In this document: positions 16,028-29,400 of the stretch, in pieces
How the letters are laid out: the number at the start of each line of letters is the position of its first letter
Position numbering within the stretch: the first letter of the stretch is position 1
The notes under the pieces: generated by a model
Database searches by the model: none
The model's input: only the letters and a program-made list of their open reading frames with translations
What the model was told of the DNA's origin: nothing
Source of the DNA: Gammaproteobacteria bacterium
GTDB lineage: Bacteria; Pseudomonadota; Gammaproteobacteria; UBA4575
NCBI GenBank assembly: GCA_965222615.1
Contig: CBDCUI010000007.1
Coordinates: forward strand, 96,001 to 160,000
Length of the DNA: 64,000 nt
Reading direction: 5' to 3'
Program-made: the position numbers and the translations under genes

Positions 16028-16870
16028 ATGAACAGGATTTCGTTAATAGTTATTACTCTATTGCTTTGCTTAAGTATGAGCACTGGATTTGCAGAAGAAC
16101 AACCTTTTATCACTCTTTCTTCTACTACTTCTACTGACAACTCAGGCCTGTTGGAGTATTTAATTCCTAAGTTTCGCAATAAAACAAGTATAAATGTGCG
16201 CGTAATTGCTGTCGGTACCGGACGCGCATTGAAACTTGGTGAACGTGGAGATACAGACTTGGTCCTGGTGCATCACAAAGCTTCAGAAGAAAAATTCGTA
16301 GAGAAAGGCTTTGGTATCGACCGCCGCGACGTGATGTATAACGATTTTGTAATCATCGGCCCAAAGAATGACCCGGCTAATATCAAACCTCTTATTAAAG
16401 CGGTTGAGGCTTTTAAAAGAATACATGCCCATCAAGTACCTTTTATTTCACGTGGTGATGACAGCGGTACTCACAAAAAAGAGCTTGAATTGTGGTCGTT
16501 AGCCAAAATAAACATACAACAATATAGCGGCACGTGGTACCGCGAAGCCGGTGCCAGTATGGGAGCTACTCTGAATATCGCCAACGCTATGAATGCTTAC
16601 GTACTTACCGATCGAGGCACTTGGTTATCCTTTAAGAATCGCGATGATCTCAGCTTACTTTTTGAGAATGATCCACCTCTATTTAACCAATACGGTGTCA
16701 TTTTAGTAAACCCTGAACGCCACCCACACATAAAGCACAAAGAAGCTAAACTATTTTCCGATTGGTTAGTTTCTAGTGAAGGCCAACAAGCCATTGCTGA
16801 CTTTACCTTAGAAGGCCAACAACTGTTCTTTCCAAATGCAAATCAAAATATCGCCGTCACACACAAATAA
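16028..16870 (+). CDS. tupA: Tungstate-binding periplasmic protein
   Basis: STTSTDNSGLL, SRGDDSGTH, DRGTW motifs; signal peptide. Confidence 0.9.
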   Translation: MNRISLIVITLLLCLSMSTGFAEEQPFITLSSTTSTDNSGLLEYLIPKFRNKTSINVRVIAVGTGRALKLGERGDTDLVLVHHKASEEKFVEKGFGIDRRDVMYNDFVIIGPKNDPANIKPLIKAVEAFKRIHAHQVPFISRGDDSGTHKKELELWSLAKINIQQYSGTWYREAGASMGATLNIANAMNAYVLTDRGTWLSFKNRDDLSLLFENDPPLFNQYGVILVNPERHPHIKHKEAKLFSDWLVSSEGQQAIADFTLEGQQLFFPNANQNIAVTHK

Positions 16871-17481: not shown

Positions 17482-17562
17482 CGCAAGAAGTGGCAGATAT
17501 GCTCCTGCAATTTCTGCATTCCCACCTTCCGTAGTGGTCGAACGTTCAGTTCATTAAATAAC
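17482..17562 (+). repeat. Isolated copy of the outer terminus of the structured element, interrupted by a 48-bp mini-insert (17492-17539)
   Basis: CGCAAGAAGT|insert|GAACGTTCAGTTCATTAAATAAC matches 19108-19139 except for one extra T. Confidence 0.85.
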
Positions 17563-17719
17563 CGCGAAAAGAAGTTTTTTCGCTTTTTTAGAAGCTGTCA
17601 TTGAATTGATCATTAGACATATGTCCAAAATTAAGGATATTGACCCTATGTAGGCTATAAATTTCGAGCATTTGCCCTAACTTCTGTAATAGAAATTTAA
17701 TTTTTATAGGAGAAGGCAA

Positions 17720-18283
17720 ATGAACGAAAACGGATCAAATTTTCCAATTTGGGTCAAATGGACTCATCTTGGGTTAGCTTTTTTTGGCATCATCGCATAC
17801 CTTACAGGCGAATTAGCAGAATACTCAAATAGCTATGGTTATTTGTTACATGCCTATTTAGGCATGACTCTATTACTGTTTCTAATAAGTAGATTCCTAT
17901 ATGGCTTCTTGGGTCAAAACATATACCGATTTTCTAATTGGTTCCCTTATAAGTTGTCATATTTAGTTTCGATTAAGGAGGATTTACAGGAACTCGCAAG
18001 GTTTAAGTTACCAAAGCGGCAAGACCATCGTGGCCTGGCTGGTTTAGTCCAAGCATTTGGATTGGTAATATTCAGCTGGATGGCCATTACTGGAACCATT
18101 ATGTTTGTTACTAATGCAAATGATGATTCCGCCCTGTCTGAGCTACACGAGGTAGGAGAAGGACTTATTCCTTTGTTTTTAGGACTTCATTTGGGAGCAG
18201 TTGCTCTACATGTGATTTCTGGCCACAATCTTTTATCCAAAATATTACCCACGCGTAACAAAAAGAAAGAAAGCACCACTTGA
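17720..18283 (+). CDS. Cytochrome b/b6-domain membrane protein
   Basis: Four hydrophobic helices with His ligands (WTHL, LLHAY, ELHE, GLHL); AGGAG RBS. Confidence 0.85.
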   Translation: MNENGSNFPIWVKWTHLGLAFFGIIAYLTGELAEYSNSYGYLLHAYLGMTLLLFLISRFLYGFLGQNIYRFSNWFPYKLSYLVSIKEDLQELARFKLPKRQDHRGLAGLVQAFGLVIFSWMAITGTIMFVTNANDDSALSELHEVGEGLIPLFLGLHLGAVALHVISGHNLLSKILPTRNKKKESTT

Positions 18284-18753
18284 GTAATTGGCAGTCCTCT
18301 ATAAATTACATACCGGCTGTAGTGCTGGGGATTGCTAGTGCATTTTTCTTATATGACATTATTACTGATGTGATGAAAGGTAATGAGAGCACCACTCATT
18401 TAGTTATTGAAGGTTTTATATTTTTAGCAACCTCAGCTGTTCTCACTCATGAGGTGTTAAGAGTAATACAACTAAAAAAAAATTTAAGACAGGAACAAAA
18501 TAAAGTTGCACGACTCTCAGGTGAATTAAGTAGTGTTATTCAAAAAGATTTTAGAGACTGGAAGCTTACTGAGAGTGAAAAGGAAGTGGCCATCTTGCTA
18601 ATTAAAGGGTTATCGATGAATGAAATTGGGCAATTACGAGGTGTAAAAGAAAAGACCGTGCGTCAGCAAGCAACAAGTATCTATACAAAATCAAAGTGCC
18701 CAAATCGGCACGAATTAGCAGCTAAATTCATTGAGGATTTGCTAAATATATAA
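18280..18753 (+). CDS. Membrane-anchored LuxR-type HTH regulator
   Basis: Two N-terminal TM segments, then LTESEKEVAILLIKGLS..EIG..R.VKEKTVRQQ LuxR HTH. Confidence 0.85.
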   Translation: MSNWQSSINYIPAVVLGIASAFFLYDIITDVMKGNESTTHLVIEGFIFLATSAVLTHEVLRVIQLKKNLRQEQNKVARLSGELSSVIQKDFRDWKLTESEKEVAILLIKGLSMNEIGQLRGVKEKTVRQQATSIYTKSKCPNRHELAAKFIEDLLNI

Positions 18754-18838
18754 ATCTCAATAAGCCCGCTATTGGCCGAATAGCAGACATTAACTATCAG
18801 CTTTGTAAATTACTACCAGTCTCAAACAGAATATATTA

Positions 18839-18940: not shown

Positions 18941-19108
18941 AACCCCTCCTCTTAGCTAAGGCATTACTTTAACATATTGCAAATTCTTCGATTAATACTA
19001 TTTCTCAATGATCAAATTAAAGAAAATGCTAGATGCTTGTTTTTGCAACGAAAAGGGATCAGGTCCTTTTTCCACTTTATAAAAAATTTGAGTAGTTTAC
19101 TCCAGACC

Positions 19109-19380
19109 GCAAGAAGTGAACGTTCAGTTCATAAATAACATTCATCGGGTTTATTTGTTCATTTTCTTTGCTTGTCCAAAGCCTTAATTAAATGAACTAG
19201 GGGAACCAAAAGAAAAGACACCCTACCAACTTGTCCTTCGGATTCGTTCACGACATCGAGTAACGTTGGCCGGCATAATGACGCCATCCAGGCGCAACAT
19301 GCCTAAAACGACCATCCCTGGTCGTTTTACCTATTGTTCCTTTCGATGTCACTCACCAAGTTGGATGGGAGGATCTAAGA
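19109..19380 (+). repeat. Structured element, left copy (possible ncRNA or ssDNA mobile-element end)
   Basis: Inverted matches to 21262-21519 (18/19, 27/27 and 20/21 nt blocks); nested stems CCAACTTG/CAAGTTGG and GACATCGA/TCGATGTC; two ATCC-loop hairpins. Confidence 0.85.
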
Positions 19381-19554
19381 GCTGCTATATTTAGATTTCT
19401 ATGATCACTAATGACCCAAAAGCATACATAAACTAAATACAGTTTATTGTGAGTAATGAAGAAATATTTCTGAAAGGAAACCGGCTCAACGAGGCTGGAT
19501 AGTTTGATAAAGATTTATCAATGTTTTTAGAAGAACTAAATCTTCTTTTGTAGT

Positions 19555-21069
19555 ATGAACGATAAAGTTACAGAGCCTAAGTCAGTATTGAGTCTTTCGC
19601 ATGAAGAGGCGAAAGACTTTTTCCTAAAGCACGAAAGCTACTTCAATGCTGATTTGCCACCTTACTTCCGTTTTGACCAAATATTAAGCGAAGTCGCAAG
19701 TGAACTTGCCGAAAAACCTTTGAATGGGCTCATGGCAGATACCAAAGCTAAGGATTGCGATGGAGTAAACCATGTAATTATTTCCAATAAAGACGGAATG
19801 CTTTCATGGCGGCCTTTGGAGCTTATTCATCCAGTTCTATATGTAAACCTTGTGCGAGAAATGACGAGAGAGGATAAGTGGCAACAACTTAAAGATAGAT
19901 TTGCGCTGTTAAATGATAATGTTTTTATCAAGTGTCTTAGTATTCCTATTGTTGCCTCAAGTGATACTAAAGATCGTGCTGAGCAAGTTTCGCAATGGTG
20001 GCAGGAAGTAGAGCTTCAGTCTGTTGAATATTCCTTAGATTATGAGTATATGTTTGAGACGGATATTACAGATTGCTATGGCTCTATTTATACGCATTCG
20101 ATTGCGTGGGCAGTTGAAGGTAAAGAAAAGTTTAAGAAAAAAGAAAATCGTAACAACACTAGTTTATTAGGCGTGTTTATTGATAAGTCAATACAAGAAA
20201 TGCAGCATAGCCAGACCAATGGCATTCCTCAGGGCTCTGTTTTGATGGATTTTATTGCGGAGATATTGTTGGGCTATATTGATAATGAACTTTCCCAGAA
20301 GATAAACGAGCATGAGATCAGTAGCTATCGGATACTACGTTATAGAGATGATTATCGAATATTCGTTAATAATCCTGAAATGGGTGAGCGTATTCTAAAA
20401 TTATTATCTGAGGTTCTAACAGAATTAGGTCTGCGTTTAAACCCAAATAAAACAATATTCAGCGATGATGTTGTAAATGCGTCCGTCAAAGATGACAAAA
20501 AATCATGGTTAGCTAGTAAATCCTACCATAAAAACCTATTTAAGCATTGCTTGATTATTAAGAAGCACTCAGATCAATTTCCTAATTCAGGAAGCTTGGC
20601 AACAGCTTTGAGTAAATTCTATAAAAGGATTTTAAAACTTAAAGAACTAGATTTATCAGCTAAAGCAATTATCAGCACAGTGATTGATATTGCCTATAAA
20701 AATCCAAGAACATACCCAGTTAGTTTTGCGATTATAAGTAAATATATTTCACTAATGGATGATAAGGAAAAACTTCCATTAATTATGAAAATAAAAAAGA
20801 AGTTTACTAAGCTTCCTAATGTGGGTTATATGGAAGTTTGGTTTCAACGTTCAATTAAGGAAAAAATTAGTGAAGTTGAATTGAATGAGCCACTTTGCCG
20901 AGTTGTAAAAGGAGAGAAAGTAGTAATCTGGAATTCGGAATGGATTGGATCAAAAACACTTAAGAAAATTGTAGAATCAGTATCTGTAGTGGACAGTAAC
21001 AAATTGGCAGAGGCTGAGCCTGTGATTGATTCACTTGAGTTTGATTTATTTCCACAAGGTTCTGGGTAA
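19555..21069 (+). CDS. Abi-P2-like reverse transcriptase (putative anti-phage DNA polymerase)
   Basis: NKDG..SWR, WWQEVE, TDITDCYGSIYTHS, QTNGIPQGS, YRDD (20341-20352), LNPNKT, helical C-terminus with KNPRTYP and EVWFQR; no maturase/endonuclease domain and no retron VTG motif seen. Confidence 0.8.
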   Translation: MNDKVTEPKSVLSLSHEEAKDFFLKHESYFNADLPPYFRFDQILSEVASELAEKPLNGLMADTKAKDCDGVNHVIISNKDGMLSWRPLELIHPVLYVNLVREMTREDKWQQLKDRFALLNDNVFIKCLSIPIVASSDTKDRAEQVSQWWQEVELQSVEYSLDYEYMFETDITDCYGSIYTHSIAWAVEGKEKFKKKENRNNTSLLGVFIDKSIQEMQHSQTNGIPQGSVLMDFIAEILLGYIDNELSQKINEHEISSYRILRYRDDYRIFVNNPEMGERILKLLSEVLTELGLRLNPNKTIFSDDVVNASVKDDKKSWLASKSYHKNLFKHCLIIKKHSDQFPNSGSLATALSKFYKRILKLKELDLSAKAIISTVIDIAYKNPRTYPVSFAIISKYISLMDDKEKLPLIMKIKKKFTKLPNVGYMEVWFQRSIKEKISEVELNEPLCRVVKGEKVVIWNSEWIGSKTLKKIVESVSVVDSNKLAEAEPVIDSLEFDLFPQGSG

Positions 21070-21261
21070 ATTTCAATATTGTAACGGATAAGTTATTTCG
21101 TGATTACGGAAGACCTGCTCGAACTAGCTCACGATTAATTCATAAGCTCTAGTTGAATGACTGCACTCCTCCTTATTCCATATTTTAAGTTGAAGTGTTG
21201 CTTCCACCAATTGGGGTCGCCGCCGTAAGCAGACATCCTGTACGTGCAAGTTCAGAGTCTT

Positions 21262-21519
21262 TCTTAGACTTCCCATTATTTACTTGACGAGCAAGCAGAT
21301 AAGACTGCTGACAAATGAATATGGATATTCATTTGAGGCACGCAACGCATGGATGCGTTTCGGGCCGACAGCAAAGTCGTTCTGTGCAGCGAGTGAACCC
21401 TGTAAGGGCAAGTAAATTTGGGTGTCCTTTCTTTTGGTTCGTTTTCTTTGGACAAGCAAAGAAAATGAACAACCTAATTTGATGACTTTAAATTAATGCT
21501 CTGAACGTTCCCTTCTTGC
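21262..21519 (-). repeat. Structured element, right copy, inverted relative to 19109-19380
   Basis: Same terminal blocks in reverse complement; stems ATTTACTTG/CAAGTAAAT, CAAATGAATAT-GG-ATATTCATTTG, AACGCAT-GG-ATGCGTT. Confidence 0.85.
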
Positions 21520-21568
21520 CGAAGTAAAAAATGATTCGTTTACTGGATTGCTTCGCTATGCTCGCAAT

Positions 21569-22649
21569 TGTATAGGTTACGTAAATCGTTGATGAAAATC
21601 ACTCATCCGATAATCTTAGATAAGTGTCTAAGCAACTCGGAACAGGAGGAGAAGCCATCATGCGAATCAACAGTCGAGATAGCACGTTAAAGAAGAACTA
21701 CATTCAGAAATATCAATATCTAATAGCTGAATACGAACAAGTTAAAGCCAAGCAGCACCCGCAGTATCGCCGGGTCAAAGACTTCTATGCGGCCCACGGT
21801 ACTTGTCCTCAAACGTTTTTAAAATACTACGCACGCTATCGTCAAAGTGGTAATGTGGTTTCTTTATTACCCGCCAAACGTGGGCCGAAATGGCGTACTC
21901 GACGCACTTGTCCGCAGATCGAAGCGCAAGTCCTCAAAGCGCGTGCGCAAGGCAATAATCGCTATGAGATTCATCTTATCTTACAAGCGAAATTAGGTCA
22001 GAATACGCCCTCGCCATCATGTATCTATCAGATCTTCAAACGTCATGGAGTGAACCGATTAAGGCCTGCTATGCAAGAAGAAAAACGCCGCATTATTCGA
22101 GAAAAGGCAGGCGAGCTCGCCCATATAGACTGTCATCACTTGAGTAAGGATATGATTGCCAATGAATCCAAGCGTCGCTATTTAGTGTGTGTGGTGGATG
22201 CCTACAGTCGTATTGCCTGGGCGCAAGTGGTCGAGGATATTCAAAGTCTAACGGTGATGTTTGCTACGCTGCGTTGTTTCAACTATTTATCGAGTCAATA
22301 TGGGATTCAGTTTGCAGAAGTCCTGACAGATAATGGACCGGAGTTCGGAGTCAAAGAGTCGAAACAAAAACCCAAACATGCCTTTGAGCGCATGTTACTA
22401 GAGATGGGCATCAAACATCGCTATACAAGACCTTATCGTCCACAAACCAATGGCAAAGTGGAACGCTTTTGGAGAACCTTGAACGAAGATTTGATTGATG
22501 GTACTTACTTTACCTCAGAAAAACACTTTGCAGATGAACTGAGTGCCTACTTAATTTATTACAATGAAGCGAGAGCCCATCAAGGTATTGATGGCAAAAC
22601 TCCCGCTTCCATGCTACAAAATCTATCAACGAATTAGATAACACATACA
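21569..22649 (+). mobile_element. IS481-family insertion sequence, 1081 bp
   Basis: TGT...ACA ends, imperfect TIRs (TGTATAGGTTACGTAAATCGTTGAT vs reverse-complement TGTATGTGTTATCTAATTCGTTGAT), GCAAT duplicated at 21564-21568 and 22650-22654. Confidence 0.92.
21660..22637 (+). CDS. IS481-family DDE transposase (ATG 21660; GTG 21624 alternative)
   Basis: HID, VDAYSR, TDNGPEF, PQTNGKVERF, YNEARAH integrase core; GGAG RBS before ATG. Confidence 0.92.
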   Translation: MRINSRDSTLKKNYIQKYQYLIAEYEQVKAKQHPQYRRVKDFYAAHGTCPQTFLKYYARYRQSGNVVSLLPAKRGPKWRTRRTCPQIEAQVLKARAQGNNRYEIHLILQAKLGQNTPSPSCIYQIFKRHGVNRLRPAMQEEKRRIIREKAGELAHIDCHHLSKDMIANESKRRYLVCVVDAYSRIAWAQVVEDIQSLTVMFATLRCFNYLSSQYGIQFAEVLTDNGPEFGVKESKQKPKHAFERMLLEMGIKHRYTRPYRPQTNGKVERFWRTLNEDLIDGTYFTSEKHFADELSAYLIYYNEARAHQGIDGKTPASMLQNLSTN

Positions 22650-22707: not shown

Positions 22708-23949
22708 TTATCTTGCAAAAGCCGGTCTATCCTTATTCAACCCCATCGCATGCGTCATAAAAAACTTTTTAACCGGTTGAATTTTATCTGCTGCATTTAA
22801 TGCAACATTACGTGCAGTGACAACTGGTTTTGCGGTAGATCCAAATGCTGCCACAAATGCATCCATGGCTTTTTGCATAATTTGTGTCTCCCCTACCCGG
22901 GCACGTTCATATTTGCGCAACACTTTATAACTACCGATATCACGCTCCCTATTAATAGATGAGCGTGCCAATACATCTGCCAGCACTGCGGCATCGGTAA
23001 ACCCAAGATTGGCCCCTTGGCCGGCTAGTGGGTGTATGGCATGTGCAGCATCACCTACTAATGCGATACGTGGTTGCACCATGCAATCGGCATGACCCGA
23101 CACCAACGGAAAACCTGCACACTTGGAACGTAAAGTAATTTCACCCAGTTTGGATTCACTGGCTTGGGCTAAGGCATCTGCAAATTTATGCTCATTCAAC
23201 TTCATGAGTTCATCGGCATAATCATCACTTACCGACCACACAATGGAACACTCCCCATTGTTTAACGGTAATAACGCCAATGGACCGGTATTTAAAAATC
23301 GTTGCCATGCAGTATCTTCATGTGCACGTTCGGTTTGTACACGTGCGACTAGACCTAGCTGTTGATAACTTTTTTCGGTGTAGGAAATATCTGCAAGACT
23401 ACGAACCGTGGAACGATGCCCGTCTGCTCCTACGAGTAATTTAGCAATTATGACTTGATCGTTATCAAGTATGACTTCTACATTGTCCGCATGCGTTATC
23501 ACTTTGTTGATGGTTTTATTTAAGTACCATTTAATATTGGGTTGTTGTTGCAAAACCTCATGTAAACTAGACTGAATCACGATGTTCTCAACGATGTACC
23601 CAAGATTGGCTTGGTTTACGTCGATGGCATTGAAACTAATGTTTGCATTACCGGCTTCATCCCAAACATGCATATTTGTATAAGGCGTAATACGCTTTGA
23701 CGCCATAGCAGACCATGCATCGATATATTCAAAAATGGCTTTAGATCCAGGACTTACTGCAGTGACCCTTGCTTCCCACTCTTGTTGTGAATCAAATGTA
23801 TGTGGTTCTGCGCGATCGATAATAGCAAGTGTTTTGCCTTGTTTAGCTAACAGGTTCGCAAGCGTAAGACCTACCATGCCGGCTCCTACGATAACTACAT
23901 CAACAGTTAGGTGCTCAGAAGCCAAAAGAAGCACCTCTATATAAACCAA
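22708..23949 (-). CDS. ubiI: UbiI/VisC FAD-dependent ubiquinone hydroxylase
   Basis: GAGMVG, GADG, GDAAHAIHPLAGQGANLG; follows ubiH. Confidence 0.82.
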   Translation of the reverse strand: MVYIEVLLLASEHLTVDVVIVGAGMVGLTLANLLAKQGKTLAIIDRAEPHTFDSQQEWEARVTAVSPGSKAIFEYIDAWSAMASKRITPYTNMHVWDEAGNANISFNAIDVNQANLGYIVENIVIQSSLHEVLQQQPNIKWYLNKTINKVITHADNVEVILDNDQVIIAKLLVGADGHRSTVRSLADISYTEKSYQQLGLVARVQTERAHEDTAWQRFLNTGPLALLPLNNGECSIVWSVSDDYADELMKLNEHKFADALAQASESKLGEITLRSKCAGFPLVSGHADCMVQPRIALVGDAAHAIHPLAGQGANLGFTDAAVLADVLARSSINRERDIGSYKVLRKYERARVGETQIMQKAMDAFVAAFGSTAKPVVTARNVALNAADKIQPVKKFFMTHAMGLNKDRPAFAR

Positions 23950-27872: not shown

Positions 27873-28064
27873 CGGACACCTCTATGATACAGGTGAGCTA
27901 CCCGGTATATCCCTTGAGCCTATTTTTTTATACCGGGGGCAATACTATAGAAGTGTTGATGCGCATGTCCGAAAAATCGGAAAGCCTAATGCACTTCTTG
28001 GTGCTCCCACTTGAACCTTTGGTTCAAGGACAACGGTTGCCACGGTAATTATGGAGTGTGTCCG
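27873..28064 (+). ncRNA. ssrS: 6S RNA
   Basis: Directly downstream of zapA; ends pair (CGGACAC/GTGTCCG); CCCTTGAGCC and CTTGAACC..GGTTCAAGG blocks typical of 6S; TACAGT -10 at 27858. Confidence 0.88.
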
Positions 28065-28578: not shown

Positions 28579-28926
28579 AAAAAATAAAATTTTTCAAATT
28601 TTTTTTTTCATTTAAAAACATAAAATGTATTTTAAACATTGCTGCTGTTTTACTTTTTTGCGCAATATTTTTATAAAATTAGGCTAAATTCACTAAAAAA
28701 ACAGCGAATTCTTGTTGTTATGTTAAATATTTAACTATAAAACAGGTTTTATACATCATCACTTTCCAATTTTTTTTATTTTATAAACGCAAATTTTTAA
28801 AAAAAATTTAAAAACATTCTCGATAGAAAGTTTAAAAAACATTACAAAAAAACTAGTATTTATTTAGTAAATGTATATACTCTGGCGCGTCTATAACTCA
28901 ACGTTTAATGTTTGGAGGGAGTATTG

Positions 28927-29400
28927 ATGGCCATCAAACGTAAAGCTACCACCAAAAGGAAAGCTAAACGTCGCACTACTAAGCGTAAGGCGACAAGACG
29001 TAAATCTACGGCTAAACGCAGAACGGCTAAGCGTAAAACAGCGAAGCGTAAGACCAAACGCAAAACCAAGCGTAAAGTTAAGCGTAAGACCAAGCGTAAA
29101 GCTAAGCGCAAAACCAAGCGTAAGACCAAACGCAAGACGAAGCGTAAAGCGAAGCGTAAGACCAAGCGCAAAACTAAGCGTAAAGCGAAGCGTAAGACCA
29201 AGCGTAAAGCGAAGCGTAAGACCAAGCGCAAAACTAAGCGTAAAGCGAAGCGTAAGACCAAACGCAAAACCAAGCGTAAAGCGAAGCGCAAGACCAAACG
29301 CAAAACCAAGCGTAAAGCGAAGCGCAAGACAACCAAGCGCAAAGCGAAGCGTAAGACGAAGCGTCGTACAACGAAGCGTAAAGCTAAACGTCGTAGATAG
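28927..29400 (+). CDS. Protamine/histone H1-like very basic protein built of (T/A)KRK repeats, 157 aa
   Basis: GGAGG RBS before ATG 28927; synonymous variation among repeats preserves this frame; terminator follows. Confidence 0.85.
   Translation: MAIKRKATTKRKAKRRTTKRKATRRKSTAKRRTAKRKTAKRKTKRKTKRKVKRKTKRKAKRKTKRKTKRKTKRKAKRKTKRKTKRKAKRKTKRKAKRKTKRKTKRKAKRKTKRKTKRKAKRKTKRKTKRKAKRKTTKRKAKRKTKRRTTKRKAKRRR

Follow-up and report, generated by a model that had tools for sequence, protein, structure and literature searches.

An inverted pair of TwoAYGGAY-related structured repeats around an AbiP2-type reverse transcriptase gene in a gammaproteobacterial genome

The 64,000-nucleotide stretch of a gammaproteobacterial genome analysed here (the window) contains two inverted repeat copies that differ in sequence, keep a common multi-stem fold and enclose a gene for an antiphage reverse transcriptase (RT). 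This arrangement raises several connected questions: 1) whether the fold is maintained by selection or is the residue of a decaying duplication; 2) which strand folds, and whether it does so as RNA or as DNA; 3) to which family the repeat belongs; and 4) whether the repeat has anything to do with the presence of the RT gene.

A fold maintained by selection, with the GGAT strand favoured

The motifs that an earlier note had picked out in these repeats are all where it placed them, namely at 19226/19357, 19234, 19252/19343, 19272/19299, 19282 and 19305 in the left copy, and at 21278/21409, 21398, 21303/21369 and in the hairpins 21344-21359 and 21312-21335 in the right copy, where the stem 21303/21369 has a 2-nt bulge in its 3' arm. 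Its element length of about 150 bp (19221..19370) was too short, the actual extent by nhmmer being about 270-285 bp per copy (Table 1). The left core has GGA-loop hairpins at 19305-19328 and 19272-19303 and a small GAA-triloop hairpin at 19234-19242, all on the minus strand; the AYGGAY-type loops read AGGGAT and CTGGAT in this copy and ATGGAT twice in the right one. Read on the GGAT strand, the two elements stand back to back with their 5' ends inward, and a sharply defined 24-bp motif is common to their outer ends. By eye, the loop of the 3' hairpin is complementary to this terminal motif (compare the 3' pseudoknot of bioRxiv 10.64898/2026.09.22.753630).

Table 1. Features of the repeat pair, its cargo and the surrounding junction in the window
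Feature	Position	Strand	Basis and remarks
Left full element, subtype 1	19102..19385	- (GGAT/AYGGAY strand)	nhmmer; 5' end towards RT
Left core (the repeat of the earlier note)	19207..19371	-	basal stems, tandem GA, two GGA-loop hairpins, small hairpin
Left T-rich 3' hairpin	19157..19206	-	alignment and fold; interrupted by a short insertion in this copy
Conserved 3' terminal motif, outer end of left element	19109..19132	-	sequence comparison
Right full element, subtype 2	21255..21526	+	nhmmer; 72.7 bits
Right core	21270-21436	+	alignment/fold
Right 3' hairpin	21437-21470	+	alignment/fold
Right terminal motif	21496-21519	+	alignment/fold
TupA-like tungstate-binding protein gene, left core boundary	16028..16870	+	below curated cut-off
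Remnant of another element's 3' terminus	17484..17565	-	split by a 47-bp insertion
Cytochrome b561 gene and small transcriptional regulator	17720..18753	+	second accessory module, outer side of left element
X-type site closing the cytochrome b561 and regulator module	18762..18790	+	loose scan
Y-type site, proposed left edge of RT module	19401..19429	+	29 bp (clean copies 28 bp); by eye and loose scan, missed by strict scans
AbiP2-type antiphage RT, 504 aa (cargo)	19555..21069	+	PADLOC AbiP2, E 5.6e-194 over 7-501
X-type site, proposed right edge of RT module	21209..21236	+	right arm intact, left part altered
IS481-family element	21569..22649	+	inserted in REP-like palindrome just beyond right element; 5-bp duplication
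UbiH/UbiF/VisC-family hydroxylase gene, right core boundary	22708..23949	-	bounds the variable junction

The folding energy of both window copies, on both strands, is better than that of 200 out of 200 dinucleotide shuffles, with z-scores of -6.1 to -6.6 as DNA and -3.6 to -5.9 as RNA. For comparative analysis a covariance model (R1), whose structure was set by hand on five ungapped local copies, served to align 46 homologues from the host, its family relatives, ten genomes at class level and E. coli; this model-guided route was taken because RNAalifold on a mixed-subtype MAFFT alignment misaligned the basal stem. When the two window copies are compared on the model-fitted alignment, 27 of the 57 model pairs are identical, 17 have changed on both sides with pairing kept, 5 show a one-sided change, 6 are broken and 2 are gapped. 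Across the 46 homologues two-sided compensatory change occurs in 56 of the 57 pairs. Pairing holds in 91.7% of the cells, as opposed to 61.3% after column shuffling and 35.8-39.5% when partners are slid; although the homologues are related and were aligned by fitting to the model, both controls fall short by a wide margin. These figures bear out the claim of the earlier note that selection acts on a folded single strand. Chance pairing within an inverted duplication in decay might be suggested by the many partial copies in the genome, and is rendered extremely improbable by the two-sided changes, the failing shuffle and slide controls and the z-scores of about -6; we accordingly rejected it.

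That note had also asked for the strand bias of G-U pairs and had read the hairpin apices as ATCC. Counted as mismatches at mostly Watson-Crick pairs and read on the GGAT strand, G.T exceeds A.C by 31 to 6 in the 15 copies of the host genome and by 92 to 34 in all 46 homologues; the excess is weak (11 to 6) in the least alignment-biased subset, seven subtype-1 copies, and it could also stem from strand-biased C-to-T change. The GGAT strand forms the more stable fold in 42 of the 46 homologues, with DNA and RNA parameters alike. Given the G.T excess and this greater stability, the ATCC apices are most likely the complement of GGA loops: the stems and hairpins lie where they had been placed, and the strand is the opposite one. 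The fold is thus maintained by selection, and the GGAT strand is favoured.

Family membership and apparent kinship to the E. coli RRS

The earlier note implied a novel repeat and itself named a match to a catalogued family as the finding that would remove the novelty; an Rfam scan returned such a match, to RF01731 (TwoAYGGAY). The left copy matches it at 19239-19359 with 36.2 bits (E 0.0023; gathering cut-off 43), and no Rfam match was obtained for the right copy. A sister copy elsewhere in the host genome (C7:790636) lies above the cut-off at 44.0 bits, as does a metagenome locus (L144) at 43.3 bits. At the gathering threshold, Rfam detects 6S RNA alone across the whole window (27876-28061, 71.7 bits). 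On account of the RF01731 match, the sister copy over the cut-off and an architecture as in a recent preprint, the repeat very probably belongs to the extended TwoAYGGAY family.

The original TwoAYGGAY motif was described in 2010 (Weinberg 2010, PMC2864571), and a proposal that it binds CsrA followed (PMC4333381). The preprint (Li et al., September 2026; bioRxiv 10.64898/2026.09.22.753630) describes an extended fold with strong copy-number variation, divergent doublets and downstream REP arrays, the last in SBW25; it reports more than 16,000 copies in Pseudomonas alone and doublets that are divergent in 68.4% of cases and a median of 249 bp apart, and leaves the function between a Csr/Rsm sponge and a mobile element. 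Our copies share with the original motif the two adjacent GGA-loop hairpins on a common basal stem, and with the extended family the elongated basal stem, the extra hairpins, the many copies per genome, the divergent doublets and the REP-like sequence downstream. They differ in several respects: 1) the window copies score below the Rfam cut-off; 2) the hairpin inside the basal stem, a variant in the preprint, is absent from the local copies; 3) the 5' array of 5-6-nt repeats, frequent and not universal in the preprint, is reduced to 0-2 motifs in the 80 bp upstream of 30 copies; 4) the spacer of the window doublet measures 1.87 kb and holds a defence gene. The covariation in the TwoAYGGAY stems is present in the 46-homologue alignment when set against the shuffle and slide controls. 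Furthermore, the preprint treats the family as RNA.

The extended family also appears, from model scores, to include the TRIP1/RRS of E. coli. The R1 model, made from five local copies only, scores both E. coli RRS at 32.5 bits, a modest similarity that spans all 165 positions and all helices. RRS-lysO is the sole significant R1 match in 89 kb of E. coli, the next best reaching 12.2 bits, and the Rfam TwoAYGGAY model gives the RRS 30.6-30.9 bits. A run of R1 across the whole MG1655 record was uninformative, with 0 candidates, the RRS included, past the prefilter. Searching 5,426 E. coli genomes by blastn with the right copy gave one chance match, so the kinship is invisible at the level of sequence. 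Literature searches for TwoAYGGAY, AYGGAY and RF01731 returned no RRS or TRIP1 paper among their results, and the main text of the preprint (10.64898/2026.09.22.753630) has no mention of 'RRS' or 'replication risk'.

Both in living cells and in vitro, the RRS provokes gaps in the lagging strand (Pham et al. PMC11194060; Kusi-Appauh et al. PMC13308219), and it is described as one of only two known replication-gap-programming sequences. It acts as folded single-stranded DNA (ssDNA), and its strand without the G4 also makes gaps, in about two-thirds of encounters (PMC13308219). TRIP1 varies in copy number, its sites lying 38-96 bp past stop codons (Li et al. PMC10888264), and RRS-dusC stands in sense orientation after dusC. 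The RRS and the local copies agree in core fold and strand, in the GCA triloop hairpin and in a long hairpin immediately 3' of the core, within an element of about 220-270 bp near a stop codon. In contrast, the RRS has 65% GC and, on that strand and directly past the 3' side of the core, a G4, a position at which the local copies are T-rich; on the folded strand of the latter we found no G4, only 2-3 widely spaced GGG runs. The RRS occupies two fixed, lagging-strand-oriented sites, whereas the 15 local copies are scattered in both orientations, with neither a lagging-strand-template bias nor symmetry about dif (5 of 15 copies, p 0.30). Because they have no G4 and no lagging-strand bias, the local copies are relatives of the RRS, not RRS.

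These differences bear on the possibility that the element serves the host as the RRS would, with programmed post-replication gaps easing topological stress and recombination hot spots arising as a side effect. The homology itself, the ability of either RRS strand to trigger gaps and the sharing of some positions with other genera (sites at a symporter, a radA paralogue, bamB and groEL) are in keeping with such a role; we nevertheless consider it unlikely, in view of the missing G4 and strand bias and of the 37 of 40 family genomes without a match, as against the near-universal RRS in E. coli.

Loop signatures and the choice between RNA and DNA

The small hairpin beside the basal stem bears most directly on the nature of the folded molecule. 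Automatic calling assigns it a GNA triloop in no fewer than 22 of the 46 homologues, the remainder comprising 15 other loops, 4 cases with none, 3 GNRA and 2 GNYA loops. The N of the triloop is A, C or T across homologues, and C in the RRS; some of the small loops are the tetraloops GTTA and GATA, which violate the GNRA rule of RNA. GNA mini-hairpins are exceptionally stable as DNA, the RNA counterpart r(GCGAAAGC) being much less so (PMC13037366).

A metagenome scan for the conserved 3' hairpin gave 123 stretches, 80 of them with flanks (L096-L175). These loci form a wider family with a common scaffold and 3' hairpin, different apical parts and mostly no AYGGAY; R1 matches 10 of 78 of them, the family having been picked by the 3' hairpin, and Rfam names 1 of the 20 tested. 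Some of the copies form pairs in direct repeat 2-4 kb apart, that of L097 including a PDC-S01 defence gene; the 3' hairpin motif had 0 matches in viral contigs. In 9.1 kb of 57 non-redundant cores there are 30 C-GNA-G hairpins with stems of at least 4. The flanks yield the same number, 30, from 257 kb, and the shuffles 31 from 456 kb, an enrichment in the cores of about 28-fold and 48-fold, respectively, counted over related, non-independent sequences. The same cores contain 2 GNRA tetraloops and 1 UNCG, and GGA-loop hairpins occur in 2 of the 57.

The published alternative (PMC4333381; discussion of the preprint) is a small RNA that titrates CsrA/RsmA by binding it with its two GGA loops. It would have spread as a repeat, and the DNA-type loops would then be incidental. 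Several observations are consistent with this proposal. The GGA loops match the Csr motif, hairpin 1 fitting the Csr/Rsm binding consensus, A/U-CANGGANG-U/A, the host genome has a csrA gene, and under RNA rules, too, the GGA strand is preferred by the G.U-type asymmetry and the folding energy. However, a weak scan upstream of the two window copies revealed no promoter-like site on the GGAT strand in either, the 5' flanks differ between copies, 55 of the 57 relatives picked by the 3' hairpin are devoid of GGA-loop hairpins, and the small loops are GNA triloops or tetraloops against the GNRA rule. We hold the sponge to be less likely than the DNA reading, yet a serious rival to it. Selection at the DNA level is, in our estimation, marginally probable, mainly because of the GNA-triloop signature; the evidence leans to DNA over RNA without settling the matter, and both readings may hold.

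Copies, cargo and the sites that bound it

Near-full copies, each about 270 bp long, number 15 in the host genome, alongside several fragments or partial copies. They fall into two main subtypes, with 77-92% and 70-95% identity within and 58-71% between them, and one outlier. Copies mostly stand alone; among the doublets are some that have spacers of 81-441 bp and enclose no cargo. In all three testable doublets the partners are of different subtypes (62-64% identity), a pairing not found in the sections consulted of the preprint (bioRxiv 10.64898/2026.09.22.753630), and in two further doublets the partners are 71-75% alike, with nothing to compare them to. In our tally, with IS481 set aside, the 3' end faces the stop codon of a convergent gene in 14 of 15 copies, these genes including recG, purH, dxs, uvrB, pmbA and orn; the bias is not general, being seen in 36 of 66 cases in the wider family. 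Of 40 family genomes searched with R1 under strict filters, 3 have the element, as do 10 of 150 genomes of the class; there is one match in a same-genus genome. Two other sites hold divergent pairs, the right copy being partial in one of them; the corresponding junctions of 5 out of 5 relatives are empty, with gaps of 17-146 bp and 145-178 bp. Copies therefore come and go between relatives.

Among known repeats, REP/REPIN sequences are non-autonomous intergenic repeats with inverted doublets and copy-number variation, and are presumed to be recognized as ssDNA hairpins by RAYT. The present element resembles them in being non-autonomous and intergenic, in its inverted doublets, in its large copy-number variation and in its presumed recognition as an ssDNA hairpin, whereas it is about ten times longer than a REP, branched and sequence-divergent, and no linked transposase was found; the one Y1 transposase, at C8:549505, is some 30 kb away from the closest partial copy. 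Integron attC sites conserve structure over sequence and fold on one strand, into a single hairpin with R/L boxes, in co-oriented arrays. The local element likewise keeps structure over sequence on one folded strand next to defence cassettes, yet it has a branched fold, occurs as inverted pairs or singletons and has no linked IntI; with 0 of 6 tyrosine recombinases near a full copy, we rejected the attC identification.

We also observed a second, shorter family of twin GGA-loop hairpins (C7:9575, 373245, 374499; C8:58216; C9:50722, 591412, 664363), several members of which stand directly past stop codons; the pair at 373-374 kb of C7 frames two small genes and X/Y-type sites. The IS481 element of Table 1 belongs to a set of five that are 99.8-100% identical; all of them interrupt the same REP-like palindrome and have a 5-bp duplication, and 3 of the 5 adjoin an element end or a twin-hairpin repeat. 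Following groEL, the same-genus genome has a full element (G001:C1:2148511-2148782) and an HNH-repeat gene, and the host has at the same site (C7:813089-822884) a 3' remnant and then a long array of X/Y modules and IS110 to the contig end. A likely defence gene for an OLD-like ATPase/TOPRIM protein (L019:3328-5106; C9:952324-954105) lies on the 5' side of a single element, which adjoins a tRNA gene and uvrB. Other features of the host sequence include tandem arrays of 324-bp and 414-bp period (C8:844814-848054 and C9:246283-247525) and, within the window at 28912-29400, a lysine/arginine-rich 162-aa open reading frame of 12-bp repeats with histone-like resemblance.

The RT between the window copies is predicted from its sequence to be of the Abi-P2 type, matching the Abi-P2 structure PDB 7R08 (PMC9508834) over nearly its full length (E 1.3e-88, residues 6-495), with the YxDD motif intact as YRDD. 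The tupA-like and Ubi-hydroxylase genes that bound the junction are adjacent in at least 7 family genomes, and in 6 family genomes the junction holds other inserts devoid of the element; the cytochrome b561 and regulator module is absent from it in relatives. Searches at E 1e-100 recovered no AbiP2 relatives in viral contigs and plasmids.

With the element 170-190 bp from the RT on both sides, it might be thought to supply a template or partner RNA, as in retrons or DRT systems. However, Abi-P2 polymerases are template-independent and protein-primed (PMC9508834), three AbiP2 relatives (47-66% identity) have no element within up to 3 kb on either side, and no RT was seen among the open reading frames neighbouring other copies, by eye and in a closer check of a subset. 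A partnership of this kind is very unlikely, and a template RNA was rejected given the template independence and the element-free RT relatives, which point to the element being neither the RT's RNA nor needed for the RT.

Alternatively, AbiP2 could travel as one piece within a composite mobile unit, with the two inverted copies as its ends. The joint absence of pair and cargo at empty junctions, the 24-bp motif common to the outer ends and the different subtypes of the partners (3 of 3; 62-64% identity against 70-95% within subtypes), reminiscent of distinct left and right ends, are what such a unit would display. It is made improbable by the predominance of single copies and the cargo-free doublets, by the lack of a target-site duplication at the two pair boundaries inspected by eye, by the RT having X/Y boundaries of its own and relatives without the element, and by the neighbours of the wider family, where 1 clear defence match among 117 proteins amounts to no enrichment.

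The X/Y boundaries are palindromic sites of 28 bp and of two kinds, present in the 5' flanks of many copies. A first regular expression was too loose (361 matches against 308 in shuffles), and a second gave 178 against 70-84. A weight matrix, derived for the most part from sites with no element nearby, gave 29 against 1-6 and recovered only 1 of the element-adjacent sites of the host genome. Of the 15 host copies, 5 have a strict site no further than 150 bp from their 5' end, with 0.009 expected for each, by an expression written post hoc, after the flanks had been seen. Among 12 loci of family relatives, 5 have a weight-matrix site no more than about 65 bp away, and no coupling emerged in 12 loci from 6 other families. 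Independent of the element, X/Y sites bracket single genes in the order Y-gene-X (C9:80512-82696 and 833 kb of C9), they occur within C7:813541-822638 and C9:253700-266570, and IS110 copies insert into them. At the proposed left edge of the RT module, one short contig from a sequencing run of another study departs at 19402, a weak indication from three records in all. Contigs aligned to the region gave no join spanning the cassette, and zero depth over the RT in one run, of which about 66% was covered, carries no weight. The 11-6-11 layout of the sites suggests a Xer-type tyrosine recombinase, and a candidate of 216 aa is predicted at C9:262056-262706, among X/Y sites. We found nothing relevant in the literature on these site motifs or on such cassette systems. 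It is likely that the cargo is moved by the X/Y sites rather than by the element and, with separate palindromic sites bounding it, the RT is probably a passenger.

Taken as a whole, we propose a dispersed, non-coding and non-autonomous element selected as folded ssDNA, with the cargo as a passenger of the X/Y sites, a model that falls slightly short of an even chance. Starting from the observed fold, family, variability and adjacency, we infer its substrate, enzyme and order of events as follows: 1) the fold would be read mainly as ssDNA, on a strand exposed at the replication fork or during transfer; 2) a candidate trans-acting enzyme, for example an HUH/Y1 transposase of the RAYT kind, would copy the element into gene junctions; 3) this copying would often yield a back-to-back pair of the two subtypes; 4) in the host family, the inner (5') side would then gather gene modules via the separate 28-bp X/Y sites; and 5) at the window locus the process would have been repeated, giving rise to the remnant at 17484, the cytochrome b561 module, the RT module and IS481.

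The element itself belongs to a known family; what is added here is a tested tie to the RRS, a DNA-type loop signature and the separation of element and cargo; taken together, these open the function of TwoAYGGAY to direct test. More broadly, and only tentatively, TwoAYGGAY may not be primarily an RNA but one branch of a widespread superfamily of folded ssDNA elements that includes the RRS and shares a scaffold and 3' hairpin with AYGGAY-free relatives; the back-to-back pairs of two subtypes would place programmed ssDNA sites at junctions between genes, as landing zones for defence modules delivered by a recombinase. TwoAYGGAY has been an orphan RNA family since 2010, with the CsrA-sponge hypothesis alone to account for it. 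Should it and the RRS be one family, the orphan would gain a ready assay and the RRS thousands of natural variants, while the G4-free local copies would test whether the branched fold alone stalls synthesis. The coupling to a separate cassette system may represent a route by which defence genes gather at fixed junctions between core genes.
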